Virus record (IMG/VR): IMGVR_UViG_3300032038_000006
Strand: one strand, 5' to 3'
Length of the DNA stretch: 64,000 nucleotides
Source of the DNA: a virus
Taxonomy: Duplodnaviria; Heunggongvirae; Uroviricota; Caudoviricetes
The notes under the pieces were generated by a model. That model saw nothing but the letters and a program-made list of their open reading frames with translations. It was not told the origin of the DNA and made no database searches. Position numbers and translations under genes: made by a program. This document shows positions 124 to 64,000 of the stretch, in pieces (the first letter of the stretch is position 1; each line of letters opens with the position of its first letter).

Positions 124-1284
124 ATGAGTACAGAAATGATATATCCAAATCCTCCATAGTTCTATGGAACCGATGGAGCAACTGGATTAGTCTCATATAT
201 CGGCGGCCCTAATATCGGATATTCAGACGGCGCGCCATTCGTTTCGGCGGCACTTCCTTGGGAACCCTTCCCTACAGCAAAAACTTCTGTGCCGCCAGTC
301 AATAAAAATGAGAAGATGTGGGGTATGACTTATGGATACTTCGCAAATAGGGGCGAAATTAAATCTGCTGAGGGAATAGAATCTCAGGAGCGTATGTATA
401 AGCTCAATAATAATTGGGTTTGCTTAACAATAGTAAACTACCAAGACACATATCATTCAACTCGAATTTATGCAGACCACTTGGCAACGCCAACGGAAGG
501 CGATATTAAAGAATTTGTCAGGGCGGCACATAAACGTGGGGTTAAAGTTTGCTTAAAACCAATGGTACATTCAAGAGATAATGTCTGGAGAGCCCATATC
601 GGCTTTCCAGACCTCAATATGGATGACCTCAATGCTTATTGGGGACCTTGGTTTGAAAGCTATAAAAACTTTATTCTCAGCTATGCAGAAATAGCACAAG
701 AATGTGGAGCAGAAATGCTATGTATCGGCTGTGAAATGCTTGGTACTGAGCACCGTAAGTATGACTGGGAATATATAATTAAAGAAGTCCGTCGTGTCTA
801 TAAAGGTAAAATTGTTTATAACACTAATCATGACCATGAAGATGACCAACAATGGTTTGAGCTTTGTGATTATCTTGGTACTTCTGCTTATTATCCAGTC
901 GGGGCAGAGTACCTTGACGGACCAGTAGATAATAGCTACGGCTCTCTTGTAAAAAGATGGTGGGAAATTCGTTATCGTCTTGATGCTATTGCTAAGGACC
1001 GCGGCAAACAATTCATCTTTATGGAAGTAGGATGTCGCTCAGTAATGAATGCTTCTGCTCATCCTTGGGACTTTACAGAAAGCCTTTCATATGATGAAGA
1101 TGAACAGTTGAATTTCTATATGTCTTGTATGGAAGTATTCAAAGATGACCCGTACTTTGCTGGAGTTTTCTGGTGGGATTGGCCGACATTCTTGCCAAAG
1201 AAGCATGGCGCTGATTTCTACATAATTGATAAGAAAGCAGAAGATTATCTCCAGCAATTCTATGGAGCGATGAATAATGTCTGA
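124..1284 (+). CDS. glycoside hydrolase-like (TIM-barrel GH26/GH113-like) protein; in-frame TAG at 157
   Basis: GGGAGG RBS plus ATG at 124. ORF is continuous through the TAG into the conserved domain. The track start at 289 is a GTG with no RBS. Confidence 0.55.
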
Positions 1285-1849
1285 TTTCACAAAAAAGTTT
1301 AAATATGACATCGGGGCTGAGCCTGGTAAAAAGGCCACCCCGAAAACATATACTTTTGAACCTAATGACGGAGAAAGGAAAGCAGAAATGACCTTTGACT
1401 TTTCTAATGTTAATGGTGATGAAGATAAACAAACGGTTTATCGTTTTATTGCAACATTAACAAGAGAAAAAGTCGAAGAGCTTGTTGCACGAGAATTTGC
1501 TCGCGGCAACATTAAGGTTTCTGACTCTAATGATGTTACTTACAAATGGGAGTATCTTCCTTATCACTACAACGAAACTTGGGCAGAGTATTGCGATTTA
1601 GTAGAGCAGGGACTTATAGGTCCAGAGTTTGTTTACTTTATTTATCGTGGTTATCACGACGAATCAGGTGTTAATTACGACACTATTACTTATAATGTTT
1701 TAAAACAACGTTATCCTGTGCTTCCCGAATGGGAAGAACGTCCTAAAGAACCTAATATGAATGAATTAATATATAAGATTGGTGTTTTGGAAAGACGAGC
1801 TGCTAATTTGGAAGATGCAATACTTGATGGAGAGAAAAGTCAATCTTAA
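1277..1849 (+). CDS. hypothetical protein
   Basis: ORF; ATG overlaps the upstream stop. Confidence 0.5.
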   Translation: MSDFTKKFKYDIGAEPGKKATPKTYTFEPNDGERKAEMTFDFSNVNGDEDKQTVYRFIATLTREKVEELVAREFARGNIKVSDSNDVTYKWEYLPYHYNETWAEYCDLVEQGLIGPEFVYFIYRGYHDESGVNYDTITYNVLKQRYPVLPEWEERPKEPNMNELIYKIGVLERRAANLEDAILDGEKSQS

Positions 1850-1853
1850 ATGA

Positions 1854-1882
1854 TTGACTTTTTCTTTTTCTTGTGGTATAAT
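1854..1882 (+). promoter_or_regulatory. sigma70-like promoter
   Basis: TTGACT n17 TATAAT, TGn. Confidence 0.6.
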
Positions 1883-1915
1883 GTTTACAGTAATCAAATT
1901 GGAGGAGAGGTATGA

Positions 1916-3034
1916 ATGAATTTTAATGAAAGACAAAAGAAAGTTATTTATGCTCAAGAGCCTAAAATACTATGCCTCGCAACCGCAGCTTGCGGAAAGA
2001 CAAGAGTTTTAACTGAGAGGATTCGAGTTTTAATAGAAGAAAAAAATGTTCTTCCACCAGATATTGTTGCAATATCATTTACTAATATGGCAGCCGATGA
2101 AATGAAACGTCGTATAGGCGGGGCGGCATCGGGAGCTTTTATTGGTACTATTCATTCTTATGGTAATAAGATTTGCACTATTAATGGTATTGATACTCAA
2201 AAATATCTTGATGATTATGACTTTGATGCTATCCTTCTAAGGGCAGTAAAGATACCTTCTTCAAAGTTTCCTAAGATTAAGCATTTACTTATTGATGAGT
2301 GTCAGGATTTAAGCCCTCTGGAATATCAATTTTTAATGAAAATTCCAACAGAAAATATCTTTTTCGTAGGAGATAACAGACAAGCTATTTACGGCTTCCG
2401 AGGTTGTACAGATGAATATCTAATTTCTATGTGGAAAGATACCGATTTCAAAAAATATTACTTAACTGAAAACTATCGCAATGCGCCAAACATTGTTCGC
2501 TTTGCAGAAAGCTTCTTGGACTCTTATACAAAGTTAAGCCCAAGTTCAATGCCAGTTAAGACGAGGGTGGGTATTCTTGAAGGAAAAGAAGAACGTATGC
2601 CGTTTATTGAAGCTCTTGAAGAACTGGAACTTTCACAGAACTGGGGCTCTTGGTTTATATTAACAAGAACCAACAATGAGCTTGCGGCGGCACAAGATAT
2701 TTTAAACAGTAGAAAAATTCCAAATGTCACCTTTAAAAAGGGAGACCTTGATTTGGATGAACTCGCGGCACTTTTAACAAGTAATCGTGTTAAGGTTCTC
2801 ACCATTCATTCAGCTAAAGGTCTTGAAAATAAAAACGTAATTGTTACAGGCGCACGTCTCTATAATGAAGAGGAACGTAAAATCTCATACGTCGCAGCAA
2901 CAAGAGCAGAGAACGCATTATACTGGTGTAATGCTATCGCTCCAAGAACTAAGAAAGGTCATAGAGCACTTCCGAAATCAGCCGAGGCGGGCAGAATCTT
3001 TGATAAGTCCACCACGGAGATGATTGAGTTTTGA
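1916..3034 (+). CDS. UvrD/PcrA-like SF1 helicase (short form)
   Basis: Motifs AACGKT, LIDECQDL, GDNRQAIYGFRG, NYRNAPNI, TIHSAKGLE, VAATRAEN. Confidence 0.7.
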   Translation: MNFNERQKKVIYAQEPKILCLATAACGKTRVLTERIRVLIEEKNVLPPDIVAISFTNMAADEMKRRIGGAASGAFIGTIHSYGNKICTINGIDTQKYLDDYDFDAILLRAVKIPSSKFPKIKHLLIDECQDLSPLEYQFLMKIPTENIFFVGDNRQAIYGFRGCTDEYLISMWKDTDFKKYYLTENYRNAPNIVRFAESFLDSYTKLSPSSMPVKTRVGILEGKEERMPFIEALEELELSQNWGSWFILTRTNNELAAAQDILNSRKIPNVTFKKGDLDLDELAALLTSNRVKVLTIHSAKGLENKNVIVTGARLYNEEERKISYVAATRAENALYWCNAIAPRTKKGHRALPKSAEAGRIFDKSTTEMIEF

Positions 3035-3531: not shown

Positions 3532-3645
3532 ATTTTATATAAGGGGTTATATAATTTTCTACTTAAATATATCGCCGTCTGCTAAACGGGCGGCATAAAT
3601 GCGTGTTCCCCTCATAGTCCGCAAGGACGAAAAGGAGGAATTTTA

Positions 3646-4518
3646 ATGAATAAGAAACTTAAAACATCAATTAAGATTGCGACAGCAGTCCTCGCGTCTG
3701 CTGTCGTGATTTGTTTTGCTACACCTCACATTGCTGGGTCTGATAGCAAAACAGCACACGGGGCAGATTTTCCTGTAAAGGCGGCCGTTGTTGCTACTTT
3801 GCCAGAAACAACAGCTACTGTAACCACAGGGACCACTACCACAACTTCATTCACAAGCACATCCACAACTTCTACAATCGCAAGCACATCCACAATAACT
3901 TCAGAAACTACAACAACTGTAGTAACTGAAGACTTCGCGGCCCCAGTAGAAACTCCTGCTGAACCTACTGAGGCGGCAACACAACCAGCAGAACCCCAAA
4001 GAGAATATGTTGTGTTTAAACCAAGCACTCATTATATACATAAGTCAACCTGTCGCTGGGTTGACAGCACTTGTTATGAAATCACAGATACTAAAGAAAT
4101 TGAATGTAGAAAATGTAGTGAATGTAATCCAGAAATAGAGATTATCAACAATTATGTCGAATCTACTCCTGTAGTTGCGAATAATACAGGAATAACAGAC
4201 TACGAAAGACAGCTTCTTGCTGAGATAACCTGCCATGAATATGGTTCAAATTGGGTATCAACAGCAGAGAAAGCAAAAATTGTTGCAGGAGTTATGAACC
4301 GTGTTTATAGCCCTGCTTATCCTAATGATATTTATTCAGTGCTAATGCAAGATGGTCAGTTCCACGGTTCTTGGGACGGCGGCCATGGATATTGGCCTGG
4401 ATGTATCACACCTAATGAAGACAGCTGGGCGGCAGTAGATTATTACTTCGCTCACCAAAATGAATTTGGAAGCTGGACTTCTTGGAGTGGCGACGGACAG
4501 TGGAATTATTTCTATTAA
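3646..4518 (+). CDS. secreted cell-wall hydrolase, SleB-like (Hydrolase_2) C-terminal domain
   Basis: Signal peptide, Thr/Ser-rich linker, and a C-terminus resembling SleB (VMNRV...FHG). Confidence 0.55.
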   Translation: MNKKLKTSIKIATAVLASAVVICFATPHIAGSDSKTAHGADFPVKAAVVATLPETTATVTTGTTTTTSFTSTSTTSTIASTSTITSETTTTVVTEDFAAPVETPAEPTEAATQPAEPQREYVVFKPSTHYIHKSTCRWVDSTCYEITDTKEIECRKCSECNPEIEIINNYVESTPVVANNTGITDYERQLLAEITCHEYGSNWVSTAEKAKIVAGVMNRVYSPAYPNDIYSVLMQDGQFHGSWDGGHGYWPGCITPNEDSWAAVDYYFAHQNEFGSWTSWSGDGQWNYFY

Positions 4519-4714: not shown

Positions 4715-5251
4715 ATGATTAGTGATTTAATTCCCACTGTAAAAGTGGAAGTTCCTATGCCGCGGTGTCGTCAGCCAAAACCTGATTATAGTCCACAAAT
4801 ATCAACATTTCACGGTTATCCCATGTTTTCTTTTAGTGAACATTGGTATTACCAGTATAATGAAGATTTTTCTCCAATTGATGAAATAATAAAAGCTGAA
4901 TCTTTTATAGAACAGAAATACAATAGGGTAATAACTTTTTCTCTTTATGAGGATTTTTATTATCTTAGAACAAAAATTGGTATATTTGAGTGGAATGAAG
5001 GAACTCCTATTCATATCTGTTTTGTAGATATGCTCTCAATGCGTCATAGAGGATTAAATTATGAAGCTCTTGTCTGGATATATGAAGAATTAGAGGGGCT
5101 ACATAAGCCGAAGGAAGAGCCAAAGCCTAAGCCATCTTTCGGTAAGCTTCGTCCTGTTCCAACTTGCCCACGATGCGGCGGCAAGATTAATTTGGAGACT
5201 TTGAAATGTGAGTATTGCCAAACTGAATTTTATTATGAGGAGGGGAACTAA
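4715..5251 (+). CDS. hypothetical protein with C-terminal CxxC...CxxC zinc ribbon (paralog of 9752..10291)
   Basis: Strong RBS. The C-terminus PVPTCPRCGGKINL...CEYC is shared with 9752. Confidence 0.5.
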   Translation: MISDLIPTVKVEVPMPRCRQPKPDYSPQISTFHGYPMFSFSEHWYYQYNEDFSPIDEIIKAESFIEQKYNRVITFSLYEDFYYLRTKIGIFEWNEGTPIHICFVDMLSMRHRGLNYEALVWIYEELEGLHKPKEEPKPKPSFGKLRPVPTCPRCGGKINLETLKCEYCQTEFYYEEGN

Positions 5252-5799
5252 TGAGTGTATACATTTGTGCTGATGCAAATCTATTAACAGATGAGAAAAT
5301 CACACAGAAAGTAATTAAGAACTGGCGTTCGGTTATAAAACCAGATGATATTGCTCTTATTATCGGAAACTTTATCAATAAAGAAGCTGGTGAAGATAAA
5401 ATAAAAGAAGTCATATCGCAGCTCACGGGCACATTGGAGATAATCGACTATGGGGAAGACCTTCCATCAGGATTTTTTTCAAAAGAAAAATGGCTGAATT
5501 TTGGAATTTCACGAACCATTTGCGTCGGGGGATACACAATTGGCGAGATATGCGGCGAGGAACAGCCAGCTATTATTGCTGTAGAACCACGAAACTTCGG
5601 AAGTCATGAAGTAAAATACTATGCGGCGGCACAGTCTTTAAGTAAGAAAAAGGAAAGATTCAAAGACAATATCTTGAACCTCAGTATGGAACATTGGAAT
5701 TACACTCCGATACTTTATACTGATGTTGCGCGTATGATTGATGATGCAATCTTATTTGAGTCTATGAACAATGAAGAAATTAACCTAAGCGAGAAGTAA
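5251..5799 (+). CDS. hypothetical protein
   Basis: ORF; start overlaps the upstream stop. Confidence 0.45.
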   Translation: MSVYICADANLLTDEKITQKVIKNWRSVIKPDDIALIIGNFINKEAGEDKIKEVISQLTGTLEIIDYGEDLPSGFFSKEKWLNFGISRTICVGGYTIGEICGEEQPAIIAVEPRNFGSHEVKYYAAAQSLSKKKERFKDNILNLSMEHWNYTPILYTDVARMIDDAILFESMNNEEINLSEK

Positions 5800-6562: not shown

Positions 6563-7590
6563 TATGGATATTGGTTGTATTACTTGGTATCGTATGTGGC
6601 GGCATTACATATGCCGTCTGCGATATTTTATCGGTTAAGTCTCTTAAAGGTAAGTTAAAGTTTTCTTCCGAATAGGAGCAAGTTAAGAAAGGACTTATTG
6701 AGAAGAAAGATGCCGCCGTCAAGGAAATGACGGATGAAATCCAAAAGGAGATTGCGGGAAAACAGGCATCATTAAGAGAATACACCTCTATGCTCGACGA
6801 GAAGAAAGCCCAATATAATACCGATGTACAAAGACTTGACGCGCAATATATAGCGACTCGTGAAGAATATGCTAAAATGGATAGGGAAGCTGAACTTGAG
6901 CGTCAAAAAGAAAATGCTGAAATCGTTGCCGCGGCAACAGCAGAACGAGAAAAGAAGATAGCTGGTGTTCAGGCTCAATATGAGAAAGATAAGGAGCAGT
7001 TGGCTGTAAATTTTTAGACATTCAGCGACGAAATAAATTTGAAAAAGGCGGCGTTGACTGAAGAAATTAAAGCCTTTGAACAAAGACAGGCGGCAATCGT
7101 AGCTTAGTTTAAGAAAGATGAGGAAGTTCGTAAGCAACGTGACTTCTATCACATTACTCTTGATACTTTAACTCTTTCAGATATAGCTAAGTTAAAGTCT
7201 ATGGCACCTGGCTTCTCTCGTCCAGAAATCTTTTATAAACTTCTATATGAGACTTACTATAAAACTCAGATAGAGGAACTCTTTAAACGAGTTCTTGGTG
7301 ACAAGAAAGATAAGGGCGGCATTTATAAGATTACTAATATAAATGATGAAAAAGTTTATATTGGTAAAACAACAAAGTTTATAGACCGTTGGCGTACTCA
7401 TGCTAAGCGTGGCTGTAATATTGAACGAATAGCTGGTCAAATCTATGACGCTATGTTCAAAGAAGGTTTGGAGAACTTCACTTGGGAAATCGTAGAGGTT
7501 TGTCCAAAAGAAGAACAAACTGAAAAAGAAAAATACTGGATAGAATTTTATCACTCCGACCAGTATGGATATAATATCAGAAAGGGATAA
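6559..7590 (+). CDS. TM helix + coiled-coil + C-terminal GIY-YIG nuclease domain, one ORF if TAG (6673, 7015, 7105) is sense; GIY-YIG domain is 7201..7590
   Basis: No stop other than TAG between 6559 and 7590. Contains GIYKITN...YIGKT and YGYNI. Confidence 0.45.
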
Positions 7591-8028: not shown

Positions 8029-8739
8029 ATGGCAAGATTATTTGTCACAGGAGACACCCACGGTGGTCTCGATATGTCAAAATTAAATAGCCGCCATTTT
8101 AAATGTAATGAATTGACTAAAGAAGATATTCTTGTCATAATGGGAGACGCAGGTTTCATTTGGGCTGACAGTTCTCAGGAGAGATTTTGGCAAAAGTTCT
8201 TGAACGATAAACCTTGGACAACTTTTTGTGTTCTTGGTAATCACGAAAACTATGACAGAATTGAACAGCTTCCTACCACTACATTTGGCGGTGAAGAGTG
8301 TTATCAGGTTTCTGATTCTATCTATTACGCGATGACTGGAAAAATATATCATTTGTGCGGTCAGGATTGTCTTGTTATGAATGGGGCAGACTCACACGAT
8401 ATATTTATTGACGGTAAGCGTTATCGTCATCCACATACTTCTTGGTGGGAGCAAGAACAAATAACAGAAAAAGATGTTGAAATAGCTAAGACTAATCTTT
8501 CTTTCTATCGCGGTACAGTAGATTATGTCTTTTCTCATACTGGCGGCACAAAGATTTGTAACTTTCTTGGTTTCAAATCTACTGTATCTGACCTTATGCT
8601 TGATAAGGTTTTAAAGGAAACTATCTATAAACAGCATTATTGTGGTCATTACCACGTTGATAAGGTAACTCCAGACGGAATAATCCTTTACGATGATGTG
8701 CGTATGATTGCAGATGATAGTAAAGAAACAATTTTCTAA
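8029..8739 (+). CDS. calcineurin-like metallophosphoesterase
   Basis: Motifs GDTHG, GDAG, GNHE. Confidence 0.6.
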   Translation: MARLFVTGDTHGGLDMSKLNSRHFKCNELTKEDILVIMGDAGFIWADSSQERFWQKFLNDKPWTTFCVLGNHENYDRIEQLPTTTFGGEECYQVSDSIYYAMTGKIYHLCGQDCLVMNGADSHDIFIDGKRYRHPHTSWWEQEQITEKDVEIAKTNLSFYRGTVDYVFSHTGGTKICNFLGFKSTVSDLMLDKVLKETIYKQHYCGHYHVDKVTPDGIILYDDVRMIADDSKETIF

Positions 8740-8753: not shown

Positions 8754-9086
8754 ATGATGAATGGTAAGATTGCTGGTACATATCTTGGACTTGCAAAAAA
8801 TGGCGATGAATGGGTAATGGGAGTATAGCTTGTTATTGCAACTAAAGAGAAGCAATATCCCGTAGGCCCAATTATAGCACAAGACTTAAATGCAATCGCA
8901 GGTATTCTTCAGGCGGCAGATACACCAAACTGGGAAAATCTCAATGGACAGGTTGTTCAGTTTGATGTAGATGAGGGAGGTAGAGTTACAAAAATAGTCA
9001 ATTGTATTGACGATAGTCTCTTCCTTAATTTCTCAGAAGTAGCACCTGCCGAAGATACTTCTAATTAGGAAGAAAAAGAAGATTGA
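8754..9086 (+). CDS. hypothetical protein, in-frame TAG at 8826 and 9066
   Basis: RBS GGAGGAG plus ATG. Absent from the ORF track because of the TAGs; followed by a terminator. Confidence 0.45.
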
Positions 9087-9752: not shown

Positions 9753-10291
9753 TGAGATGTGTTAAAACTAATGACGAAGCTATTCATGAGATAGTTACAT
9801 TCAATGGCTATCCAGTAGTTCAAATGGGACAGTGGCCATATAGAGAAGATTATCCTGCAACTATGGTCTGTGGTCTTAGCCATCATCAGCAAATGGATAG
9901 GGTAGAGGAATTTGTATTAAGAGAATATGATAGAAAAATAAAATTTTTTCAACAGCTTAATCTTTTCGATGAAAAACTTTTTATTCTCATCTACTGGGAA
10001 AAGAAATTCTATTCCTATAAGATACCTTGGAGAAATACTTTCTCTGTTGGACGAGCTCCTTTCCCTGAGATGTACGGAGACAGTTGTTTTGGAGGGGAAG
10101 CTCTTCTTATTGACCTATGTAAAGACTGGGTTAAGAGAATTAGAAAGCCAGGAGATGGGGAAAAGAAAATACCTGTGTTACAAGGCCTCAAGCCTGTGCC
10201 TACTTGTGAACGTTGCGGCGGCACAATTAATTTAAGCACAATGAGTTGTGAATATTGTAACACAAAATATTATGTGGAAGGAGTATTTTAA
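9752..10291 (+). CDS. hypothetical protein with C-terminal zinc ribbon (paralog of 4715..5251)
   Basis: Shared C-terminal motif. Confidence 0.5.
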   Translation: MRCVKTNDEAIHEIVTFNGYPVVQMGQWPYREDYPATMVCGLSHHQQMDRVEEFVLREYDRKIKFFQQLNLFDEKLFILIYWEKKFYSYKIPWRNTFSVGRAPFPEMYGDSCFGGEALLIDLCKDWVKRIRKPGDGEKKIPVLQGLKPVPTCERCGGTINLSTMSCEYCNTKYYVEGVF

Positions 10292-10602
10292 TGGAAAAGG
10301 CTTTCACAGTTCGTGAAGATTGTGAACTCGTCAATTATATGATTGGTCTTACAGAAGACTTTCACGACAAAAATCCAAACTTCATTCTTCGTGGTTCATA
10401 TGGCGTCCTCGCCGCAAGACTTCTCGGTTTTACTTACCCTGAGTATCTTCGTTACTGTGCTGTCAACGGCGGCACAATAAAGGGTCGCACAGGTTTCCCT
10501 CACTGTGTGTTCAAGAATAAGAAGGACGCAGAGAAAATATGTAATCTTATCAATAAGGAGTGGGATAGATTCGTTCAATCCTTCTATCACAAGTATCGTT
10601 AA
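10291..10602 (+). CDS. hypothetical protein
   Basis: ORF. Confidence 0.45.
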   Translation: MEKAFTVREDCELVNYMIGLTEDFHDKNPNFILRGSYGVLAARLLGFTYPEYLRYCAVNGGTIKGRTGFPHCVFKNKKDAEKICNLINKEWDRFVQSFYHKYR

Positions 10603-11348: not shown

Positions 11349-11482
11349 TGAACATGGATATGATTATCGGTGGCGGCACAGGAAGAGAGTTCATTGATGC
11401 TGGTACTTTGAAAGAAATCGAAGCAGCAGCTCCTGCCGCAGCAAACAAGGAAGAAGAAAAAGAAGACCCTAATAAGGAATAA
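11348..11482 (+). CDS. small hypothetical protein
   Basis: Start overlaps the upstream stop. Confidence 0.3.
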   Translation: MNMDMIIGGGTGREFIDAGTLKEIEAAAPAAANKEEEKEDPNKE

Positions 11483-15199: not shown

Positions 15200-15663
15200 T
15201 GGAGATAATAACTTCATACTTTTATCAAATAAGATTTTTTACTCCTAATATTATTCCATTAAGTATGGCGGTTTTTGACCCTGCTTGGTATCATATCAAC
15301 GGAGACTATAAGTCAACTTACGTTGATAAGAATGGTGTCCTTATCGGTTGTAGAGCGGACCCATTCGTATCAGACTTTCAAAATATGGCTGAATGTGGCG
15401 GCAAGACCTGTAAAGCAGACCCACATAGTTGTGCGTTTCTGCGTGATTATTATTTACAGCTCAAGTGCCTTGATTACAGAGAAATGATGGAGAGGTTCGA
15501 GAGCATTGGTCATCGAGTAAAAGACTTCTTACAATTTAAAGAAGACCCCGTTGCCGCCCTAATCGTTTATGAGAAACCAGAACAATTATGTTCAGAAAGA
15601 CTCATTATACAGAAATGGTTTAACGACCATGGCTATGAGATAAAAGAGTTTTCAAAAAATTGA
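15199..15663 (+). CDS. hypothetical protein
   Basis: ORF. Confidence 0.45.
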   Translation: MEIITSYFYQIRFFTPNIIPLSMAVFDPAWYHINGDYKSTYVDKNGVLIGCRADPFVSDFQNMAECGGKTCKADPHSCAFLRDYYLQLKCLDYREMMERFESIGHRVKDFLQFKEDPVAALIVYEKPEQLCSERLIIQKWFNDHGYEIKEFSKN

Positions 15664-16255: not shown

Positions 16256-16609
16256 TAATGATTTCTTAAAAGTAATTTTGAGGTCTGGATTTTTTACCGC
16301 AATGTTAGTCAGAATTAAATGAGGAAACGCGGCTCTATCAAAATTACTGTTAAGAGGTCATTATGACCTTTACCCGCTGTGCGGGGTCGTAGAAATACGA
16401 TAGCTCATCCACCACGTGTGGAAAGAGTTCCTTAGTACGTTATGCTTTTCGTATAGCGTTCTATGATTATTGCCGCCCATCTCGGGGCGTGCCCCTTCTC
16501 CATGGTAGCCCTCTTGTGTGGGAGTAAATCACGATGTGACTGTGGATATAATACGAGGATTGACGTACAAGCAAGGGTCCTTATTTAAAAAGCAAAGAGG
16601 TGAAACACA

Positions 16610-17457: not shown

Positions 17458-18180
17458 GTGCCATTATTTAATGGCATTGTAACTTAAATGTTACTGGTTG
17501 CGGCGAGACTTGTCAAGGAAAAGACGTTAAAACCCCACGAGGAAGTGGTTTAAATTCCCTTTACACCCTCGCTGAGAGAAAGCGAATCACCAAATATTCT
17601 CTACAGTTGAGTTGAGGTTTACTCATTGGACTGTTTAAAACCACAAAAACCAAATTGGGCAGAGACCCATCACAGACCTGCCCGACTGTGTGATGGCAGT
17701 ATAAATCCGTGTATTGGCTGGCACGGCAGCGGTTACGTACATTACCGTGAGTACGATAGGCACGCAATGTCCATTCGGGGAAGTACCGATAAAATTACGA
17801 CATCTACTGCTGACGATGTAAAAGGGAAAATTTCTTGGTTATGAACATACCTAAATCAAGTGGTTAAGCGGCGCGTTTACTGCGTTAGTGTGGGAACCTG
17901 ACGACATTACAATGGTCCATAACTTGTGTTGGTTATGGCGGCGATTAGAATAGTCGCCCGTTGTCACGGCAAATTATTCACATAGCTACAGCTCAGTGGC
18001 TTTATAACTAATGAGATTAGGTTGAAATTCCTTTCAGCAACTGGCGATGGAGGGGTTCGAGTACCCTGTCTCCTGTGTGCAGGAGATGTGGCGGCACCCA
18101 AGATTGTTGAAGAAATACTCTCAATTAAGTCGACCTTCACGTGGTGAGAGTGCTTGCGAAATGACTTAGAAATCAAAAAT

Positions 18181-29291: not shown

Positions 29292-29628
29292 ATGTTGGGA
29301 TGGAGAGGGCGGCAGCCGTTCTTCTCTTAACAATTTTTATGGTGAGGCGGCACAGAACAAACCTTCAACAGGTAAGAAGAAGGTAAAAGAAAAGACTAAG
29401 AAGTCAGACCATAAGCATGATTATGAGAAAGTTCTCATTAACTATGACGATTGGCACGGTCTCTGCGTTGGCAGATTATGTCGTATCTGTGGTAAACTTG
29501 TATGCGACAGAACTACTGTTTGTCTCCCGACAAATAATGGTTATTATCGAGCAATAGATGATGATGAACTTCTCAAACTCCCTGAGTACAAGGACCTAAG
29601 AATAATTAATGGCGGAAAATTCATATAA
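29260..29628 (+). CDS. hypothetical Cys-rich protein
   Basis: RBS GGAGG. Confidence 0.4.
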   Translation: MGKGDYRKVNECWDGEGGSRSSLNNFYGEAAQNKPSTGKKKVKEKTKKSDHKHDYEKVLINYDDWHGLCVGRLCRICGKLVCDRTTVCLPTNNGYYRAIDDDELLKLPEYKDLRIINGGKFI

Positions 29629-32904: not shown

Positions 32905-33474
32905 ATGATTTATTTTATTAGCGATTGCCATTTTGGTCATGACCGAGAGTTCGTATTTGGACCGAGAGGTTTTAGCAACATTGATGAGATGCATAAGGCT
33001 CTCATTGAAAATTGGAATAAGACTGTTACAGATGAGGACGACATCTATGTCGTTGGAGATTTCTTCCTCGGCACAAATTGGGAGTTCATTAAGAATACTC
33101 TCAATACTCTGAAGGGTCGAATTCATCTTATCGTTGGAAATCACGACACTCCCGCTAAGATTACAGAATACACAGCTTGGGATAACATTGTCGAGATTGC
33201 TGATGCACTTCGTGTTAAGTATAAGAAGAGAACATTCTTCCTCTGTCATTATCCTACATTCACAGCAGGTCTTGAGCAGGACCCTCATAGAGCAGTAATC
33301 AATATCTTCGGTCACACTCATAGCAAAGAGAAGTTCTTCGAGGATAGACCTTATATGTATAATGTGGCGGCAGATGCACATAACTGCACACCTGTTTCTA
33401 TTGAGCAGATTATTGAGGATTTCAATGCTAAGGTTGATGAGTGTATTGCATACCTTAATGAGGAGGACAAGTAA
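32905..33474 (+). CDS. calcineurin-like metallophosphoesterase
   Basis: Motifs DCHFGH, GDFF, GNHD, GHTH. Confidence 0.6.
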   Translation: MIYFISDCHFGHDREFVFGPRGFSNIDEMHKALIENWNKTVTDEDDIYVVGDFFLGTNWEFIKNTLNTLKGRIHLIVGNHDTPAKITEYTAWDNIVEIADALRVKYKKRTFFLCHYPTFTAGLEQDPHRAVINIFGHTHSKEKFFEDRPYMYNVAADAHNCTPVSIEQIIEDFNAKVDECIAYLNEEDK

Positions 33475-37481: not shown

Positions 37482-38333
37482 ATGACAGCTATTGATAATT
37501 ATACAACATATATAGAGGGTATGCAGAAGTCGCTTGATGACAAGCTGTTCTGGATACCGCTTCTCGAAAATGAGAAGATAAATGCAGTTGTTGACTTCGG
37601 TTGTGCTGACGGAGCACTTATTGACAAAGCTTATCATCAGTTGTATCTTCAGCATAATGAAAACGCTAAATTTATCGGAGTCGATAATAACGAGAAGATG
37701 CTTGATAGGGCATTAACAAATTGTCCTTTTATGAAGGCGGCAACAAACCTTGGAGGAGTTCAAGTAAGAGAAAACTATCTTCTTAATCTTAGCAGCGTTA
37801 TTCACGAGGTTTATTCTTATTGCACTGACGAAGAAATTGATGACTTCTGGAATCACGTTCTCAATGATAACTATAAATATATCGCTATCAGAGATATGAT
37901 GGTTGATAGGTCTGTAAATCTTATTAACCCAGTAGTAGAACGAACACAGAGTGGTATTCATTGTTTCCGTAATGAATATTGGAACAAGTATTATGATAAA
38001 ATATGCAAGTTTGATACAAAACAGTGGCAGAATTTCCTTATTCATAATGGCTATGATGCAGATGAAAGTATTTATGAAGTTGAAAATAAAGACGTTCTTC
38101 ATTTCCTTATGAAGTATCGTTATATCGAGAACTGGGAAAGAGAAGTAAGAGAAAACTATTTCCCAATCTACTTTGAGGACTTACTCAATAAAATAATCGA
38201 AAACGGCAACTATGAAATCGTCTATGCAAGACAGTACATTCTTCCTTTTGTAAAAGAAAAGGTTAAGGAAGACTTCGACATAGACCTCGTAGATAATACC
38301 CATTGTCAGATTTTACTTAAATGGGTTGATTAA
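37482..38333 (+). CDS. class I SAM-dependent methyltransferase
   Basis: Motif I VVDFGCADG. Confidence 0.55.
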   Translation: MTAIDNYTTYIEGMQKSLDDKLFWIPLLENEKINAVVDFGCADGALIDKAYHQLYLQHNENAKFIGVDNNEKMLDRALTNCPFMKAATNLGGVQVRENYLLNLSSVIHEVYSYCTDEEIDDFWNHVLNDNYKYIAIRDMMVDRSVNLINPVVERTQSGIHCFRNEYWNKYYDKICKFDTKQWQNFLIHNGYDADESIYEVENKDVLHFLMKYRYIENWEREVRENYFPIYFEDLLNKIIENGNYEIVYARQYILPFVKEKVKEDFDIDLVDNTHCQILLKWVD

Positions 38334-38347: not shown

Positions 38348-38671
38348 ATGGGTTTTCGTAAGCATACATTCCCAATCAGACTTATAGACAAGGCTGAAAA
38401 GCCCATTAAGATTGTTTCTGGTTGGGCAAATGACGACTACACAATCGGTTTCCACAAGATTTGCACTAAGCGTCAGAGCTGGACTAAGTGGGCGGCAACA
38501 GACCTCTACTCTGGTACTTGCATCACTATCCAGAAGACTCGCCGTCAGTGCGTTGAGTGGATTGAGAACAACAAGGAGCTTATCGAGAAGACTATGGAGG
38601 AGCCTTGGTACATCCAGAGAGTTATGGAGTTCAAGAGACTCCTTGAAAAGGAAATGGAGGAAATGGAATGA
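38348..38671 (+). CDS. hypothetical protein
   Basis: RBS. Confidence 0.4.
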   Translation: MGFRKHTFPIRLIDKAEKPIKIVSGWANDDYTIGFHKICTKRQSWTKWAATDLYSGTCITIQKTRRQCVEWIENNKELIEKTMEEPWYIQRVMEFKRLLEKEMEEME

Positions 38672-50058: not shown

Positions 50059-50412
50059 ATGGATAAAACAGTATCGGTAAAGACTCATCTTATTATCACA
50101 GACATTCACGAAGAATACAATATAAATTGGTGCGGTCGGCTTATTGACTCCAACCCTGTTCTTAAAAATGGTATGCCTATCTTTGTCGTTGCAGGTAGCA
50201 ACGGCAGAATGGAGCTCAACACCATTGATATGAAACAGATAGAGGAGTGGGGTAAGAAAATGACCTATCCTCGTGGACGTAAGGCAGTCACAACTGATAA
50301 AGCCTACATCTACATTAAAGAAAAGGGCGGCAATGAGAAGCTCGTCTGTGTAGTAACCCATAATCACATTAAGAAGTACGCTTCAATGTATGATAAGGTT
50401 GGTTACAGATAA
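50059..50412 (+). CDS. hypothetical protein
   Basis: ORF. Confidence 0.4.
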   Translation: MDKTVSVKTHLIITDIHEEYNINWCGRLIDSNPVLKNGMPIFVVAGSNGRMELNTIDMKQIEEWGKKMTYPRGRKAVTTDKAYIYIKEKGGNEKLVCVVTHNHIKKYASMYDKVGYR

Positions 50413-52517: not shown

Positions 52518-52594
52518 GCCGTCGTAGCTCAGCTGGTTAGAGCACTCGGCTGATAACCGAGAGGTCGGAGGTTCGAGTCCTCTCGGCGGCACCA
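52518..52594 (+). tRNA. tRNA-Ile(GAT)
   Basis: Loop CTGATAA. Confidence 0.8.
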
Positions 52595-53011: not shown

Positions 53012-53087
53012 GGCGGCATCGACAAGTGGTCTAAGTCACCAGCCTTTCACGCTGGAGTCACGGGTTCGAATCCCGTTGCCGTCACCA
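53012..53087 (+). tRNA. tRNA-Glu(TTC) second copy
   Basis: Loop CTTTCAC. Confidence 0.7.
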
Positions 53088-58392: not shown

Positions 58393-58674
58393 ATGACAAG
58401 AGAAAGCTTTGAAAGAGCAAAGGAACTCGATGAGAGAATCGCTGATACTAAGACAAGAGTAAATGCTCTCCTTACAAGAATGGGAGCTGGACCTTCTGGA
58501 GTAAAAGTTGACCACATTAAGCTCTCTGGCTATACTGATGAAGAGGGCGGCACCAGACTTCCTGAGAGATTCGTCGGAATCCCTGAAGAGGTCGGCGTTA
58601 AGATAGTTGCATTACTCAGAGACTATTACAGCAAGGAGCTTGCAGAGCTTCAGGCAGAATGGGAGGCACTTTAA
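58393..58674 (+). CDS. hypothetical protein
   Basis: RBS AAGGAGGA. Confidence 0.4.
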   Translation: MTRESFERAKELDERIADTKTRVNALLTRMGAGPSGVKVDHIKLSGYTDEEGGTRLPERFVGIPEEVGVKIVALLRDYYSKELAELQAEWEAL

Positions 58675-58916
58675 TGGAAAAGATAACTGAAGTTTACATC
58701 GTTCACTATGTGAACGCTTGGGAGATTGATGTCTGTGCCTCTCCTGAGGCGGCAGAACAGAAAGGTAGAAGTTACCTTCAGGAAATCGCCACTGAGTTCA
58801 CTAAGGAAGAGTTCGACCTCATAGTCGCTGAGTTTGAAAACTCTCTGAGAGAATATGAGGGCGCCTTCTCTGTTGAAGACGTAATGTGGGTTGAAATTCA
58901 GCCTCTTATCTACTAA
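58674..58916 (+). CDS. hypothetical protein
   Basis: ORF. Confidence 0.4.
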   Translation: MEKITEVYIVHYVNAWEIDVCASPEAAEQKGRSYLQEIATEFTKEEFDLIVAEFENSLREYEGAFSVEDVMWVEIQPLIY

Positions 58917-58964: not shown

Positions 58965-59439
58965 ATTTATAGAAAAGGTTGAGGAAAGAAAATAAAAAGC
59001 GGTACACGGTTCGGTACGGTTTCTGAGTTCTCCGCTATATAAATGTGAAGTAATTGTAACCGATTGACATAGACCAGCCTTAGGTTGCTTGAGATACAGC
59101 AGGGGTAGGGCATCGCAGATGAGCGTGTGTGGTTGGGAAGAGACGAAATCCGCTGACCACTAAAGTTCTCCGACTGCAAGAGGTACGGCGGCAGAACTGA
59201 AAGGCGATTAATAAATTGACGGGGCAGCGGCTTTTAGGAGAATTTTCCTGCGTTTAGTGGAAAACAACCTTTCTACCTTTGGTTGACGGTGACTGGATAG
59301 TGGAACCGTTACCTCACTTTTAAATGGGGATTGGCAGAGGTCAGTATCTCGGGGAGTGTTTCAATGGAAATCTCCTGAGCCGCCGTTGAAAGAAACGGTC
59401 GAAGCGGGTTCCAACTCCCGTAGTCTCCACCAATTAAAT

Positions 59440-60167: not shown

Positions 60168-60519
60168 AGCAAGACTCCATAACAGCAAACCAGAGAGGAA
60201 ACTCATAGCAAGTCAGAGCCATAGCGGGGCGGCAGGAGAGCAAACGGTATTAGTTCCTGCTTGCTAAACTCTTAGCTGATGATACCGATGGAGCAGGTCT
60301 TATCCTTGGCACCTAAAGAGCAAAGGACGGAATGCGTCGCTCGAAACCGCGACCGCAACCGAGTGTTTGCGATTAAAGAACAGGTACCACTGGCAGAAGG
60401 GGCATCATAAGTCCTTTAATAAGGCGAAAGTAATTCCAGTGATGTCGGTGCCCTGTTCACACTCATTAATATTTTTAATTTATTCACAAAAAATTTACAG
60501 AATATTCACAAAAAAATAC

Positions 60520-60548
60520 TTGATTTTTTTCAAAAAATATGTTATAAT
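60520..60548 (+). promoter_or_regulatory. sigma70-like promoter (-35 TTGATT) preceded by two TTCACAAAAAA direct repeats
   Basis: TTGATT n17 TATAAT. Confidence 0.55.
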
Positions 60549-60580
60549 ATATATAGAAAAAAAATAAAAAAGAAATAAAT

Positions 60581-60672
60581 GTCGAGGTCACTCAGTGGGG
60601 AAGAGTAACAGTCCAGAAAACTGTCGCTCCTCGAAAGGGGAGCTGAGGGTTCGAATCCCTCTCTCGACGCCA
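60581..60672 (+). tRNA. tRNA-Ser(AGA), type II
   Basis: Loop CCAGAAA; long variable arm; A34. Confidence 0.6.
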
Positions 60673-62798: not shown

Positions 62799-63313
62799 TG
62801 GAAAAAGTCTGGATAGTTGATGACGAATATGGTCACGCTATAAAGGTCTTCTACGACGAGGAAAACGTAATCGAATATATCTTATCTCGTATATATGACG
62901 ACGCTGATGGTAAGGTTGATGACTTCTTAACAGAGAAGGAAGCCCTTTACTGCTCCTATGACGAATATTATAAGGGCGGCACAAACTCCTTTGGTACTGA
63001 AATCTATACAGCAACTCTAATGGAGGTGTCAGACAGTGACGCTAATCGAGAAGATGAAGTTAATACTGAAAACGAATACGGAGCCAGAACTACTACTATC
63101 AGACGAGGAACTCCAAACTTACCAACGACTCTCAGGCGCTCCCGCCGTCAGACGTTTTTACAACTCGCCACGACAAAGGGAACTTTGTCTGTACCTGTTT
63201 CTTTTGGAAAGAGCAATAAGCGAGATGCAGATAGCGGAGAAAGCAAACGAAGCGGTAACCGAGTCCCTAAAGTACGAGCTGCAAACGCTCAAAACGGAAA
63301 ACGCCGTCCTTAA
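62798..63313 (+). CDS. hypothetical protein; the 3' third overlaps 63036..63383 and is probably not genuinely coding to its end
   Basis: ORF extended by the lack of TAG stops. Confidence 0.35.
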   Translation: MEKVWIVDDEYGHAIKVFYDEENVIEYILSRIYDDADGKVDDFLTEKEALYCSYDEYYKGGTNSFGTEIYTATLMEVSDSDANREDEVNTENEYGARTTTIRRGTPNLPTTLRRSRRQTFLQLATTKGTLSVPVSFGKSNKRDADSGESKRSGNRVPKVRAANAQNGKRRP

Positions 63314-63383
63314 ACGCCAGTTACAACACTACGAACAAATGGCAGGGCGGCACGAAGAAGACTTCAACTCACAATTTGATTAA
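63036..63383 (+). CDS. coiled-coil hypothetical protein (GTG start, GGAGGTG RBS)
   Basis: RBS 7 nt upstream of GTG. Confidence 0.4.
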   Translation: MTLIEKMKLILKTNTEPELLLSDEELQTYQRLSGAPAVRRFYNSPRQRELCLYLFLLERAISEMQIAEKANEAVTESLKYELQTLKTENAVLKRQLQHYEQMAGRHEEDFNSQFD

Positions 63384-63388
63384 AACTT

Positions 63389-63432
63389 AAGGAGGGCGGC
63401 ACCAAGACCACGGCGTTTGTCCTCCTTTATTA
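63389..63432 (+). terminator. rho-independent terminator before the terminal repeat array
   Basis: AAGGAGG..CCTCCTT followed by a T-rich run. Confidence 0.5.
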
Positions 63433-63579
63433 TAATTATATCATTATAATTATACGGGGTCTGAAAATTTTATAAGGACCTATATACTCCCAACACTTAA
63501 ATAACGATTAAGGGAGAACTATTATATATAATTATAATATTAATATAATAATATAATTATAATAATATAATTATAATAA

Positions 63580-64000
63580 TAGGGGAGTCTATAATTTTTA
63601 AATAATAAAGAAACCAATAGCAGACAGCGAATCCAGTATAAGGGGAGCATTACATTGAACGATTAGGAAGAACAATATAATTAAATATTATAATAAAATA
63701 GCAGATAGACAGCAGAACAATAAGGGGAGCTATACTAAAGGATTAGAAAAGGGGAGCCAAACCTAAAAATTATCAGAGGGCGGCACAACAATTAAGGAAA
63801 GAAAAGAGACGTCAGTAAAGGGAGAGTAATAAAAGGGGAGCAATATAATTATATAATAATAATAATAGGGGAGCAGTAAAAGAGAAATAGTAAAAGGGGA
63901 GCAATAACTGGGAAGCCTATAAAAGGGGAGCCTATAATCTTAAATTATAAAAAGGGGAGGGGTAATTGCCCCAATAATAAGGGGAGCCTATAATAATCCC
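63580..64000 (+). repeat. AT-rich array of about 11 direct repeats with core AAGGGGAGC, several followed by CTATAAT, phased at 28-29 bp in the last six copies; no ORF
   Basis: Copies near 63583, 63641, 63723, 63751, 63834, 63866, 63895, 63924, 63953, 63981. Confidence 0.6.

Follow-up and report, generated by a model that had tools for sequence, protein, structure and literature searches.

The 64,000-nt window analysed here raises the question of why one GC-rich heptamer, GGCGGCA, recurs along it almost always on the same strand. The window lies in a 181-kb TAG-recoded phage, uncultivated and from gut or rumen, whose structural genes are SPbeta-like and which carries 46 tRNAs and one tmRNA. 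An exact count gives 52 sites, of which 46 lie on + and 6 on -, near the first-pass annotation's estimate of at least 49 (44 on + and 5 on -). Dinucleotide-preserving shuffles of the window yield 2.59 +/- 1.64 sites (maximum 8). The claimed over-representation and strand bias are confirmed. The sites are listed below; they read GGCGGCA unless another form is given, and L001, L002 and L003 are relatives.

246..252, +, GH113-like gene 124-1284 (in-frame TAG), xxG-GCG-GCA frame
290..296, -, GGCGGCAC, within + gene
522..528, +, GGCGGCA(C), coding, Ala-Ala frame
2122..2128, +, UvrD-like helicase gene, Ala-Ala frame
2686..2692, +, GGCGGCACA, UvrD-like helicase gene, Ala-Ala frame
3589..3595, +, intergenic, small hairpin (3' arm), pairs with GCCGTCTG
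3972..3978, +, coding, Ala-Ala frame
4428..4434, +, coding, Ala-Ala frame
5177..5183, +, coding, Gly-Gly frame, CxxCGG, paralogous to 10217
5625..5631, +, GGCGGCACA, coding, Ala-Ala frame
6598..6604, +, GIY-YIG gene 6559-7590 (in-frame TAGs), Gly-Gly frame, also a hairpin 5' arm
6711..6717, -, within + gene
7089..7095, +, GIY-YIG gene, Ala-Ala frame
7315..7321, +, coding, Gly-Gly frame
8542..8548, +, GGCGGCACA, metallophosphatase gene, Gly-Gly-Thr
8912..8918, +, gene 8754-9086 (in-frame TAG), Ala-Ala frame
10217..10223, +, GGCGGCACA, coding, Gly-Gly-Thr, CxxCGG paralogue
10468..10474, +, GGCGGCACA, coding, Gly-Gly-Thr
11372..11378, +, GGCGGCACA, small ORF, Gly-Gly-Thr
15397..15403, +, coding, Gly-Gly frame, kept in L001, GGTGGCA in L002
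15552..15558, -, within + gene
16471..16477, -, opening bases of a 115-nt element, non-coding and conserved
18090..18096, +, GGCGGCAC, non-coding, tRNA genes either side, kept in L001
19377..19383, +, coding, Gly-Gly frame, GGCGGTA in L002
19838..19844, +, GGCGGCACA, spacer from Shine-Dalgarno GGAGG to ATG (GGAGGGCGGCACAATG)
24506..24512, -, GGCGGCAC, non-coding
24628..24634, +, GGCGGCAC, small membrane-like ORF, Ala-Ala frame
27570..27576, +, GGCGGCACA, coding, Gly-Gly-Thr, kept in L001 and L002
27690..27696, +, GGCGGCACA, coding, Gly-Gly-Thr, kept in L001 and L002
29308..29314, +, coding, Gly-Gly frame
29346..29352, +, GGCGGCACA, coding, Ala-Ala-Gln, kept in L003, GGCGGCG in L001, GGCGGTA in L002
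31817..31823, +, SPFH/flotillin-like gene, Ala-Ala frame
32213..32219, +, SPFH/flotillin-like gene, Ala-Ala frame
33366..33372, +, phosphoesterase gene, Ala-Ala frame
37736..37742, +, methyltransferase-like gene, Ala-Ala frame
38491..38497, +, coding, Ala-Ala frame
42604..42610, -, within + gene
43753..43759, +, GGCGGCAC, coding, Ala-Ala frame
44939..44945, +, GGCGGCACA, coding, Gly-Gly-Thr
46286..46292, +, coding, Ala-Ala frame
48055..48061, +, within the tmRNA gene (47800-48143)
50326..50332, +, coding, Gly-Gly frame
52585..52591, +, GGCGGCAC, tRNA-Ile(GAT) 3' acceptor strand, possibly incidental
53012..53018, +, tRNA-Glu(TTC) 5' acceptor strand, possibly incidental
58546..58552, +, GGCGGCAC, coding, Gly-Gly-Thr
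58748..58754, +, coding, Ala-Ala frame
59187..59193, +, non-coding
60228..60234, +, non-coding, tRNA genes either side
62975..62981, +, GGCGGCACA, coding, Gly-Gly-Thr
63346..63352, +, AGGGCGGCACGAAGA, non-coding, iteron-region edge, first in a set of three similar copies (family D10)
63395..63401, +, GGAGGGCGGCACCAAGA, non-coding
63779..63785, +, AGAGGGCGGCACAACA, non-coding, within the AAGGGGAGC iteron array
63400..64000, no strand, iteron region, AT-rich, non-coding, ~2.3 kb in total, extending beyond the window end

The sites occur once per 1.4 kb at a strand ratio of ~8:1, with irregular spacing that includes five gaps of 4-5.5 kb. Longer forms are polar as well, with counts of 22:2 (+:-) for GGCGGCAC and 14:1 for GGCGGCACA, against an order-1 expectation of 0.09. 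Under the Markov correction that the annotation had proposed, the expectation rises with context, to 16 sites at order 3 and 40 at maximum order, because the sub-words GGCGGC (84:11) and GCGGCA (71:21) are enriched themselves. The motif core is GCGGC (148:41 vs 26 expected), with favoured flanks G- and -A/G. Several trivial sources are ruled out: slippage of (GGC)n, since GGCGGCGGC is found only once in the window; a single protein family, since the flanks are mutually unrelated except for a downstream -CAA preference; and the tRNA genes.

Coding constraint leaves the excess in place. Per-gene synonymous shuffles, with protein and codon usage fixed, predict 3.74 +/- 1.75 coding copies, while the window holds 35, a 9.4x excess that makes GGCGGCA the top outlier among all 7-mers (z = 14). 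Non-coding DNA on the + strand contributes 8 copies against 0.41 expected, ~20x. The annotation was right that genes form the motif in two frames, 16 sites as GGC-GGC-A (Gly-Gly) and 19 as xxG-GCG-GCA (Ala-Ala), with 0 in the third. Its description of these codons as otherwise rare suits GCG (97 of 982 Ala codons, 41 of the 97 preceding GCN) but not GGC, which makes up 30% of Gly codons. GGCGGCA occupies 62% of Gly-Gly-(A..) opportunities and 27% of x-Ala-Ala opportunities. Gly-Gly pairs are written GGC-GGC in 35 of 66 cases (6.1 expected) and Ala-Ala pairs GCG-GCA in 25 of 84 (3.3 expected), and the Ala-Ala preference depends on codon order: GCA-GCG falls outside the frequent pairs, and GCT-GCT is depleted. 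GGCGGCA placement overrides normal codon choice.

Some positions required correction. The sites at 246, 6598, 7089 and 8912 seem non-coding under the standard code, yet belong to genes that contain in-frame TAG. Of the non-coding examples, those at 19838, 48055 (tmRNA), 63395 and 63779 hold, whereas 57241 reads GGCGGCG, and the site placed at 526 is actually at 522. Within the window, coding copies are 35 sense and 4 antisense, and since every gene there lies on +, transcription direction fully confounds the strand bias. A polar DNA signal is therefore unjustified from the window by itself; flanks and relatives are needed.

These flanks and relatives bear directly on the possibility that GGCGGCA is a transcript-level or transcription-coupled early-gene element, either an mRNA binding or processing site or a non-template elongation-factor signal (ops/RfaH-like), with the same GC-rich word serving unrelated ends in promoter spacers, terminator stems and the terminase region. 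The uniform gene direction and 35:4 sense bias suit this account, as do ~38 near-identical strong sigma-A type promoters that drive the region, non-coding copies in transcribed spacers (three directly after a Shine-Dalgarno), and the window's many RNA-handling genes, among whose products are two RNA ligases, one PNK/HD protein and one Ro/TROVE-like protein. The ops element also starts GGCGG, and in the distant relatives L005 and L013 all 10 GGCGGCA sites follow gene direction. Against it, the bias is gone in the adjacent block of - genes of the source phage, with 6 copies on the window's + strand and 4 on - (4 sense vs 6 antisense), although many of these sit in repeated promoter and terminator cassettes and are thus non-independent. 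Copies also sit inside promoters, in the spacer that separates -35 from -10, and the promoter concerned does not transcribe them. Relatives' + oriented terminase and portal genes contain antisense TGCCGCC 5, 5, 4 and 5 times against 0.19-0.58 expected, exceeding all 300 shuffles, with 0-2 sense copies and a GC skew that is still positive. In 14 genomes this - strand cluster falls from -1.5 to +2.5 kb relative to the start of the terminase gene, and antisense enrichment was gained independently across lineages, with extra lineage-specific gains. The contrast between the window (35:4) and the terminase/portal block (3:12) gives Fisher p = 2e-6, the reversal being 4-5 sites per genome, partly inherited among relatives and seen in these rather than in the source contig. 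In L005, that clade's own heptamer, GGCCGCA, holds its strand where gene direction switches. Known ops-type elements are found a single time in each operon, compared with every 1.4 kb here. GGCGGCA polarity is set by genome region, not by transcription, as the reversal at 4-5 sites per genome in relatives shows, and we regard a transcript-level role as rather improbable.

Comparison across relatives also shows how the sites evolve. Strand counts are 14:2 in L001, 9:5 in L002 and 6:1 in L003, and many of the relatives' sites are non-homologous in position, differing by synonymous C/T changes; the extra conservation of sites over background, measured against L001, is marginal (11/12, background 0.65-0.69). 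Sites turn over and density is maintained. Sister clades carry heptamers of their own: CGGCGCG (9:0; 6 coding copies vs 0.31 expected), GGCCGCA (7:1, with - genes holding 3 copies in antisense) and GCCGCAG (8:1). A polar GC-rich heptamer is thus clade-specific, its word varying among sister clades, much as the sequence of Chi varies across bacterial taxa.

The motif might instead have no signal function and be a by-product of a codon-pair preference linked to the phage's own tRNA-Gly(GCC) and tRNA-Ala(UGC), of GC-rich hairpin stems in a genome rich in AT, or of context-dependent mutation or repair bias. The phage does encode tRNA-Gly(GCC) and two tRNA-Ala(TGC) genes, and some copies form stems of small hairpins or terminators. 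Candidate host DNA is also weakly alike. The sole host clue comes from a flotillin gene, which shares 55-60% identity with homologues in Lachnospiraceae. In 583 kb from this family, taken as the best host guess and oriented by GC skew, genes exceed synonymous shuffles 2.2x for GGC-GGC and 1.6-1.9x for GGCGGCA, whose excess in the phage is 9.4x. In the same 583 kb, GGCGGCA is no outlier (114:42, rank 4519 of 16330), stands at 2.7x the order-1 expectation and equals the order-3 one, and is among the top five 7-mers in 0 of 80 loci. Effects of 9.4x in coding and ~20x in non-coding DNA argue against a by-product. The codon-order dependence of GCG-GCA disfavours tRNA reuse, and hairpins account for few sites because the + strand of the window has only 11 GCCGCC partner arms vs 84 GGCGGC. 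Antisense enrichment is built from wholly different codons (Ala-Ala as GCC-GCC, Pro-Pro as CCG-CCx and Cys-Arg as TGC-CGC, in three frames), and sister clades with similar tRNA-rich regions favour other words. Such an origin is very unlikely. The DNA-level evidence that fits a Chi-like signal fits equally a polar signal of another type, arranged about a replication origin or a terminus in the iteron region; its variants are a guide for a directional translocase (KOPS/SRS-like, or serving packaging or ejection), a preferred primase start site on the lagging-strand template and a strand-specific nicking site. The strong + polarity stops exactly at this region, which contains AAGGGGAGC ~14 times, then TTAAAAAATTTAACTA 3 times and GCAGCTCAC ~10 times, and which may be an origin and not a terminus. 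Three independent close-relative contigs start near it, ~22.3 kb upstream of the terminase gene. The mean spacing of ~1.4 kb is within the range of phage Okazaki fragments, and GGCGGCA ends in GCA, a triplet known to be recognised by the primase of phage SP6. Yet a whole-genome replication or packaging signal should not be nearly missing from ~20 kb of sampled late genes (1 site in the 8 kb left of the window; 0-2 sites in the 9 kb past the portal gene in relatives), and a packaging-direction signal predicts one genome-wide orientation rather than a flip near the terminase genes. The irregular spacing also counts against it, no phage is known to use KOPS-like sequences, and T5-type nicks keep to one strand throughout the genome. 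We consider these variants together unlikely, while giving them more weight than a transcript-level element.

The annotation had read the motif as a Chi-like hotspot or another polar DNA signal. This reading is partly supported: a DNA-level polar signal is backed by the excess over the synonymous null (35 vs 3.7), the non-coding excess (8 vs 0.41) and independence from gene direction outside the window. The Chi-like part draws no support from the guessed host family, where the motif is no outlier. GGCGGCA(CA) would be a polar DNA-level recognition sequence accumulated by selection in this phage lineage, set wherever the protein cheaply permits, as GGC-GGC or GCG-GCA, and in non-coding DNA. Its likeliest reader may be a helicase-nuclease that processes DNA ends, of the AddAB/RecBCD type and presumably encoded by the host, and a Chi-like role is our tentative preference. 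On reaching the motif from its 3' side, the enzyme would stop degradation and begin recombinase loading, as at Chi. In the proposed layout, packaging would begin near the terminase genes and proceed into the late genes, so that the early block, including the window, would be packaged last and injected first. The window's + sites would then be oriented toward an enzyme coming in at that first-injected end, and the small - cluster just inside the terminase-proximal end toward one from the opposite end.

The motif contains the GCGG core common to the AddAB "Chi" of B. subtilis (AGCGG) and S. aureus (GAAGCGG). Its density, ~8:1 ratio and regional clustering resemble those of Chi-rich phages: LLS has 23 Chi, 20 in the same orientation, one per 1.86 kb and clustered toward one end; P1 carries 50 over 94.8 kb, with both strands represented and positions arranged relative to pac; MD8 has 32:0; and Chi is the commonest octamer in both LLS and P1 (PMC12315714; bioRxiv 10.1101/2021.07.08.451572). 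Words of the Chi type, which tell an enzyme to stop degrading and start recombining, are known to accumulate in some phages, and the pattern of GGCGGCA matches.

The heptamer GGCGGCA occurs at 52 sites in the 64-kb window by exact count, 46 on the plus strand and 6 on the minus strand (46:6), against a chance level of 2.59 +/- 1.64 (maximum 8) in dinucleotide-preserving shuffles. Both the count and the shuffle check agree with the first-pass annotation, which had called the word enriched and strand-biased. Longer versions behave in the same way, with GGCGGCAC at 22:2 and GGCGGCACA at 14:1 against 0.09 expected. GGCGGCA is the peak of a small word family whose core, GCGGC, stands at 148:41 against about 26 expected; in core-bearing heptamers, G (46) is preferred over C (15) at position 1 and A (46) over G (22) at position 7. 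Apart from a downstream C-A-A preference, the flanks of the sites are unrelated, and paralogous genes account only for the sites at 5177 and 10217, so the earlier proviso that a single repeat in one protein family might lie behind the signal did not hold.

Several simple origins can be set aside. Triplet-repeat slippage is ruled out because GGCGGCGGC is found only once in the window, and inflation by tRNA genes is ruled out, with RNA genes holding only 3 of the 46 plus-strand sites. The remaining words with a strong strand skew come from tRNA T-loops (GGTTCGA, 44:0, a separate family) and from a repeated promoter. A resemblance to the Neisseria DNA uptake sequence, GCCGTCTG, was also considered; it has four copies, and no uptake-sequence pattern emerges because two of them are hairpin partners of GGCGGCA. 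A literature search for the heptamer returned primer-type matches only.

The window covers positions 13,944-77,943 of ena:ERZ27256903:k141_101128 (180,954 bp), a contig of a large uncultivated phage. Megablast against INPHARED gave no near-identical known phage, protein matches to known phages are distant, and relatives reach 182-193 kb. The structural module is SPbeta-like, with YonG, YonD, YonB, YomW and YomU domains. TAG is a sense codon in this phage: in-frame TAGs number 1-21 per gene upstream of the window and in the late, structural and packaging genes, all of which stop with TAA or TGA. The features concerned, together with the tmRNA, are as follows.

L015 (flank/relative locus) 1-9369: TAG-bearing region outside the window
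L103 (flank/relative locus) 8331-13182: TAG-bearing region outside the window
Window 5813-6562: thyX, example of a window gene with TAG
Window 6559-7590: GIY-YIG gene, example of a window gene with TAG
Window 17015-17090 and 17094-17170: two tandem tRNA(CUA) suppressor genes
Window 47800-48143: tmRNA with the short tag ADYAIAA

The window also holds 46 tRNA genes in three clusters (15724-21371, 51045-55438 and 59440-60672) that serve nearly every amino acid. The tRNAs and the tmRNA have as neighbours two RNA ligases, a kinase/HD protein, a nucleotidyltransferase and a Ro/TROVE-like DUF2828-vWA protein, and together with these RNA-repair-type genes they make up an extensive module for supplying and repairing tRNAs. 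A small ORF between tRNA genes (16611-16873) has a signal-peptide/lipoprotein-like N-terminus and a Thr/Glu/Ala-rich low-complexity tail (TTTEAETTEATT...). Homing-endonuclease-type genes (GIY-YIG with NUMOD, HNH) occur at window 6559-7590, 14549-15199 and 55861-56574 and at 15327-15842 of the flanking locus L016, one of them directly 3' of thyX, and a UvrD-like helicase at window 1916-3034 is unusually short at 372 aa. About 38 near-identical strong sigma-A-type promoters, all rightward, recur roughly every 1.5 kb (for example at 14006, 29633, 42989, 51844 and 59603). They take the form AAAAATTTGACtttttt..aTGnTATAATatatatagaaaa with a 17-nt spacer and an extended -10 element, and their sequence points to a host RNA polymerase that is probably of the Firmicutes type.

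Gene calls treated TAG as a sense codon; under the standard code, four GGCGGCA sites would appear non-coding. With these calls, 35 of the 46 plus-strand sites are coding, 8 are non-coding and 3 lie in RNA genes. The first pass had described two reading frames, Ala-Ala (GCG-GCA) and Gly-Gly (GGC-GGC), and this description stands: 19 coding sites read xxG-GCG-GCA, 16 read GGC-GGC-A and none uses the third frame. When codons were shuffled synonymously within each gene, keeping the protein sequence and codon usage fixed, 500 shuffles gave 3.74 +/- 1.75 coding copies (maximum 10) against the 35 observed. No other 7-mer deviates as strongly (z = 14), and the top words of the same test at k = 6 and k = 5 are GGCGGC and GCGGC. 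Gly-Gly pairs are written GGC-GGC in 35 of 66 cases (6.1 expected) and Ala-Ala pairs GCG-GCA in 25 of 84 (3.3 expected), and the word fills 16 of 26 Gly-Gly-(A..) opportunities. Codon order matters, since the reversed Ala pair shows no preference, and pairs that contain GCT are under-represented. Non-coding window DNA carries 8 plus-strand copies against 0.41 expected, an excess of about 20-fold. The coding excess over the synonymous null and the non-coding excess therefore show that selection, or whatever process operates, targets the nucleotide word itself.

The strand of the word is harder to read from the window alone. All 96 of 96 called genes lie on the plus strand, and the strand bias inside the window is therefore inseparable from co-orientation with transcription. 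Beyond it, a 2.3-kb AT-rich non-coding region runs from window 63400-64000 into L016 10600-12700 and contains about 14 copies of AAGGGGAGC, then three of TTAAAAAATTTAACTA and about 10 of GCAGCTCAC. This iteron region, which has one TAG-rich gene inside, lies between converging plus and minus gene blocks and is a candidate origin, terminus or packaging region. Independent ENA contigs of three close relatives (70-142 kb) start near it, 22.2-22.4 kb upstream of the terminase gene, and small contigs cross it without a consistent break; the shared start could reflect a true end of the DNA molecule or a point where assemblies repeatedly break. To the right of the iteron region, genes turn to the minus strand for about 17 kb, in a block of small genes represented on three flanking loci.

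L016 12700-20516, minus strand: part of the block of small genes
L018 1-15350, minus strand: part of the block of small genes
L099 7500-20342, minus strand: part of the block of small genes

In this block, which resembles the host-takeover modules at the genome ends of SPO1 and T5, repeated intergenic cassettes of 100-130 nt separate the genes. Each is built from a terminator hairpin (GGGCGGC-loop-GCCGCCC), GGCCCGGG, a GTTAG..CTAAC hairpin and a promoter TTGACAgGGCGGCACa..TATAAT, and in cassette promoters of the form TTGACA-g-GGCGGCAC-a..TATAAT the heptamer sits between the -35 and -10 elements. Across 10.4 kb of the block in the source contig, GGCGGCA occurs 6 times on the window's plus strand and 4 times on its minus strand, many copies sitting in the cassettes, and the sense bias of the word is therefore lost there. 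A role in hairpin or terminator stems fits several copies in this block and two window sites. Such stems are rejected as a general cause, with 84 GGCGGC and only 11 GCCGCC on the plus strand of the window.

Farther right, plus-strand genes resume with a YonG-like protein, the large terminase, the portal protein and others. In the genomes of 14 relatives, the minus strand of these plus-strand genes carries 4-5 copies of GGCGGCA in a stretch from -1.5 to +2.5 kb relative to the terminase start, with extra lineage-specific antisense copies in L100 and L104. Each terminase/portal locus thus carries 4-5 antisense copies against 0.19-0.58 expected, above all 300 of 300 synonymous shuffles. The antisense sites read as GCC-GCC, CCG-CCx and TGC-CGC codons, in genes that are still G-rich on the sense strand. 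Sense and antisense counts are 35:4 in the window and 3:12 in the terminase/portal block (p = 2e-6), a reversal observed in relatives rather than in the terminase region of the source contig, with few sites per genome that are partly shared by descent. The word is scarce deeper in the late genes: the 8 kb to the left of the window have 1 copy, and 0-2 copies occur over the 9 kb past the portal gene. The bias is lost in the minus block and the antisense cluster lies in plus-strand genes; the strand of GGCGGCA thus appears to follow the genome region, not transcription.

An IMG/VR protein search with the Ro-like protein found loci at 98%, 81% and 74% identity, which carry GGCGGCA at 14:2, 9:5 and 6:1, respectively, over about 21 kb each. 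Against the relative locus L001 (92.5% identical), 11 of 12 sites are preserved, compared with a 7-mer background of 0.65-0.69, a sign of constraint that is marginal at best. Against L002 and L003, many sites are non-homologous in position, and synonymous C/T exchanges, for instance GGTGGCA or GGCGGTA, make up most of the differences. Individual sites turn over while density is kept. A 115-nt non-coding element at 16471-16585 (also 16360-16440) is 92-100% conserved in the same three loci, with diverged and rearranged flanks; no Rfam family matches it, and shuffled sequences are predicted to fold at least as well (z = +0.34). A small RNA pairing with GGCGGCA through its 5' end (TGCCGCC at 16471) was considered and dropped, as the fold equals shuffles and the heptamer lies in a predicted stem.

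More distant relatives use other words. The clade of L010 and L012, whose Ro-like protein is 43% identical, has no GGCGGCA excess and instead shows CGGCGCG(A) at 9:0, with 6 coding CGGCGCG copies against 0.31 expected. For L005 the word is GGCCGCA (7:1, with three copies antisense within minus-strand genes), and for L105 it is GCCGCAG (8:1). Such lineage-to-lineage change is what a co-evolving protein-DNA interaction predicts, and general translational or structural causes predict no such change.

Chi is a polar DNA word that makes the RecBCD/AddAB helicase-nuclease stop degrading and start recombining, and GGCGGCA shows the excess beyond composition and codon usage expected of it. In the lambdoid phage LLS, 20 of 23 Chi sites are oriented for RecBCD entry at one end, at one per 1.86 kb and with half within the terminal 22% of the genome; the E. 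coli phage P1 has 50 in 94.8 kb on both strands, placed relative to pac and denser toward the ends, and Pseudomonas phage MD8 has 32:0 (PMC12315714; bioRxiv 10.1101/2021.07.08.451572). In LLS and P1, Chi is the commonest octamer, neighbouring words are enriched too, and sites are thought to come and go (PMC12315714; bioRxiv 10.1101/2021.07.08.451572). As in these phages, a short asymmetric GC-rich word is here the most over-represented oligomer, at about one per 1.4-1.9 kb and a strand ratio of about 7-8:1 or better; its density is uneven, with clusters in particular regions, its orientation appears to depend on position in the genome and not on individual genes, neighbouring words are in excess as well, and there is turnover of sites. 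By analogy, the pattern fits this known class of Chi-rich phages. Chi-rich phages tend to have no recombination module or RecBCD/AddAB inhibitor of their own (Bobay 2013; Zheng 2025); a scan of about 40 proteins of the 64-kb window recognised none. The Chi sequences of Firmicutes AddAB enzymes are likewise asymmetric, G-rich and 5-7 nt long (B. subtilis AGCGG, S. aureus GAAGCGG, L. lactis GCGCGTG), and GGCGGCA shares a GCGG core with the first two while differing as a whole sequence.

The arrangement of the sites can be read in the same terms. Under the lambda rule, a top-strand word is active for an enzyme coming from the right (PMC12315714). The plus-strand array in the window would then face an enzyme entering from the window's right; for the minus-strand cluster at the terminase genes, the matching side of entry would be its left. 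If packaging begins near the small-terminase gene and runs into the late genes, as it does in many pac and cos phages, the early block would be packaged last and injected first. With such a packaging start, both arrays would face the two ends of the packaged DNA; we infer this layout relative to the packaged ends and the packaging direction.

Three differences temper the analogy. In P1, LLS and MD8, the word is an experimentally established host Chi and growth depends on RecBCD, whereas GGCGGCA is a putative one; E. coli Chi suits host codon usage (bioRxiv 10.1101/2021.07.08.451572), while GGCGGCA opposes that of the phage; and GGCGGCA is no outlier in the candidate host clade. Firmicutes, and within them Clostridia, are the likely host phylum of this phage, and AddAB is used there. 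The closest bacterial homologues of a flotillin-like phage gene, at 55-60% identity, are from Lachnospiraceae such as Acetatifactor and Butyrivibrio of gut and rumen. In a GC-skew-oriented panel of 37 Lachnospiraceae loci (583 kb, about 20 kb per genome), a clade guessed from this homology and a test of low power, GGCGGCA stands at 114:42, which is 2.7 times the order-1 Markov expectation, equals the order-3 one and ranks 4519 of 16330 7-mers. The synonymous-shuffle ratio is 1.6-1.9x in panel genes, at 0.14-0.27 copies/kb, against 9.4x and 0.78 copies/kb in the phage. GGCGGCA and its clade variants are in the top five 7-mers of 0 of 80 candidate-host loci, again with low power at about 20 kb per genome.

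We know of no Chi described for Lachnospiraceae. One panel locus, from a Candidatus Eisenbergiella MAG (L072), has the S. aureus-type GAAGCGG at 18:5 against 3.5 expected, which may be a sign that this family, too, uses a Chi of the AGCGG type; in other host loci, repeats within the flotillin gene itself raise the GAAGCGG counts. GAAGCGG as a host Chi used by the phage was rejected, since its 9 window copies compare with 4.7 expected and 8 of 100 shuffles reach 9.

Weighing these observations, we tentatively favour a Chi-type signal, a reading that falls somewhat short of probable. It is very improbable that the word is a by-product without function. Codon-pair or tRNA-supply bias, which would be confined to the sense strand of coding DNA, fails on the roughly 20-fold non-coding enrichment, on the antisense enrichment that employs other codons and on a pair preference that depends on codon order. 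Strand bias of a short asymmetric word can arise in phages with co-oriented genes, as in T7, whose EcoP15I sites (CAGCAG) have a complete or near-complete one-strand bias; that case involves bias only and predicts neither a 10-20-fold excess nor a regional reversal. A transcript-level element is improbable as well. Elements of the ops/RfaH type occur as a single copy in an operon leader, always on the non-template strand and with a cognate NusG paralogue, while GGCGGCA has 46 copies throughout coding sequence and forms antisense clusters; scans of the window proteins found no NusG-like protein.

Another kind of polar DNA signal is unlikely, yet carries more weight than these. KOPS and SRS are octamers of bacterial chromosomes that converge on dif and are read by the gamma domain of FtsK/SpoIIIE; like GGCGGCA they are G-rich, more frequent than expected and skewed between strands, and they change orientation at a fixed place on the chromosome. 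The polarity of GGCGGCA stops at the iteron-rich region. Unlike them, GGCGGCA has a far higher density, and the sparse late region, nearly without the word, opposes a KOPS-like guide for the whole genome; to our knowledge, no phage uses KOPS or SRS. Rather doubtful, finally, is a self-marking system in which a phage-encoded helicase-nuclease or translocase reads clade-specific polar words in these ~180-kb TAG-recoded phages. Such a reader would spare or steer phage DNA during destruction of host DNA, as a private, co-evolving analogue of Chi. The absence of a phage-word signal in candidate hosts and the rapid change between sister clades, as seen in the sequences, would be compatible with it.

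If GGCGGCA is indeed a host AddAB Chi, the phage genome would disclose which sequence acts as the recombination hotspot in an uncultivated Clostridia lineage of the gut or rumen, a group for which we know of no Chi. The clade-specific words would form a comparative series tying sequence to nuclease recognition residues, and they could serve in practice as host-prediction markers and to shield linear DNA in poorly tractable bacteria. If the reader is instead phage-encoded, the words would represent a new kind of self/non-self marking. Under the Chi reading, reliance on host recombination through many Chi sites, documented until now in enterobacterial and Pseudomonas phages, would extend to large stop-codon-recoded phages of anaerobic Firmicutes.
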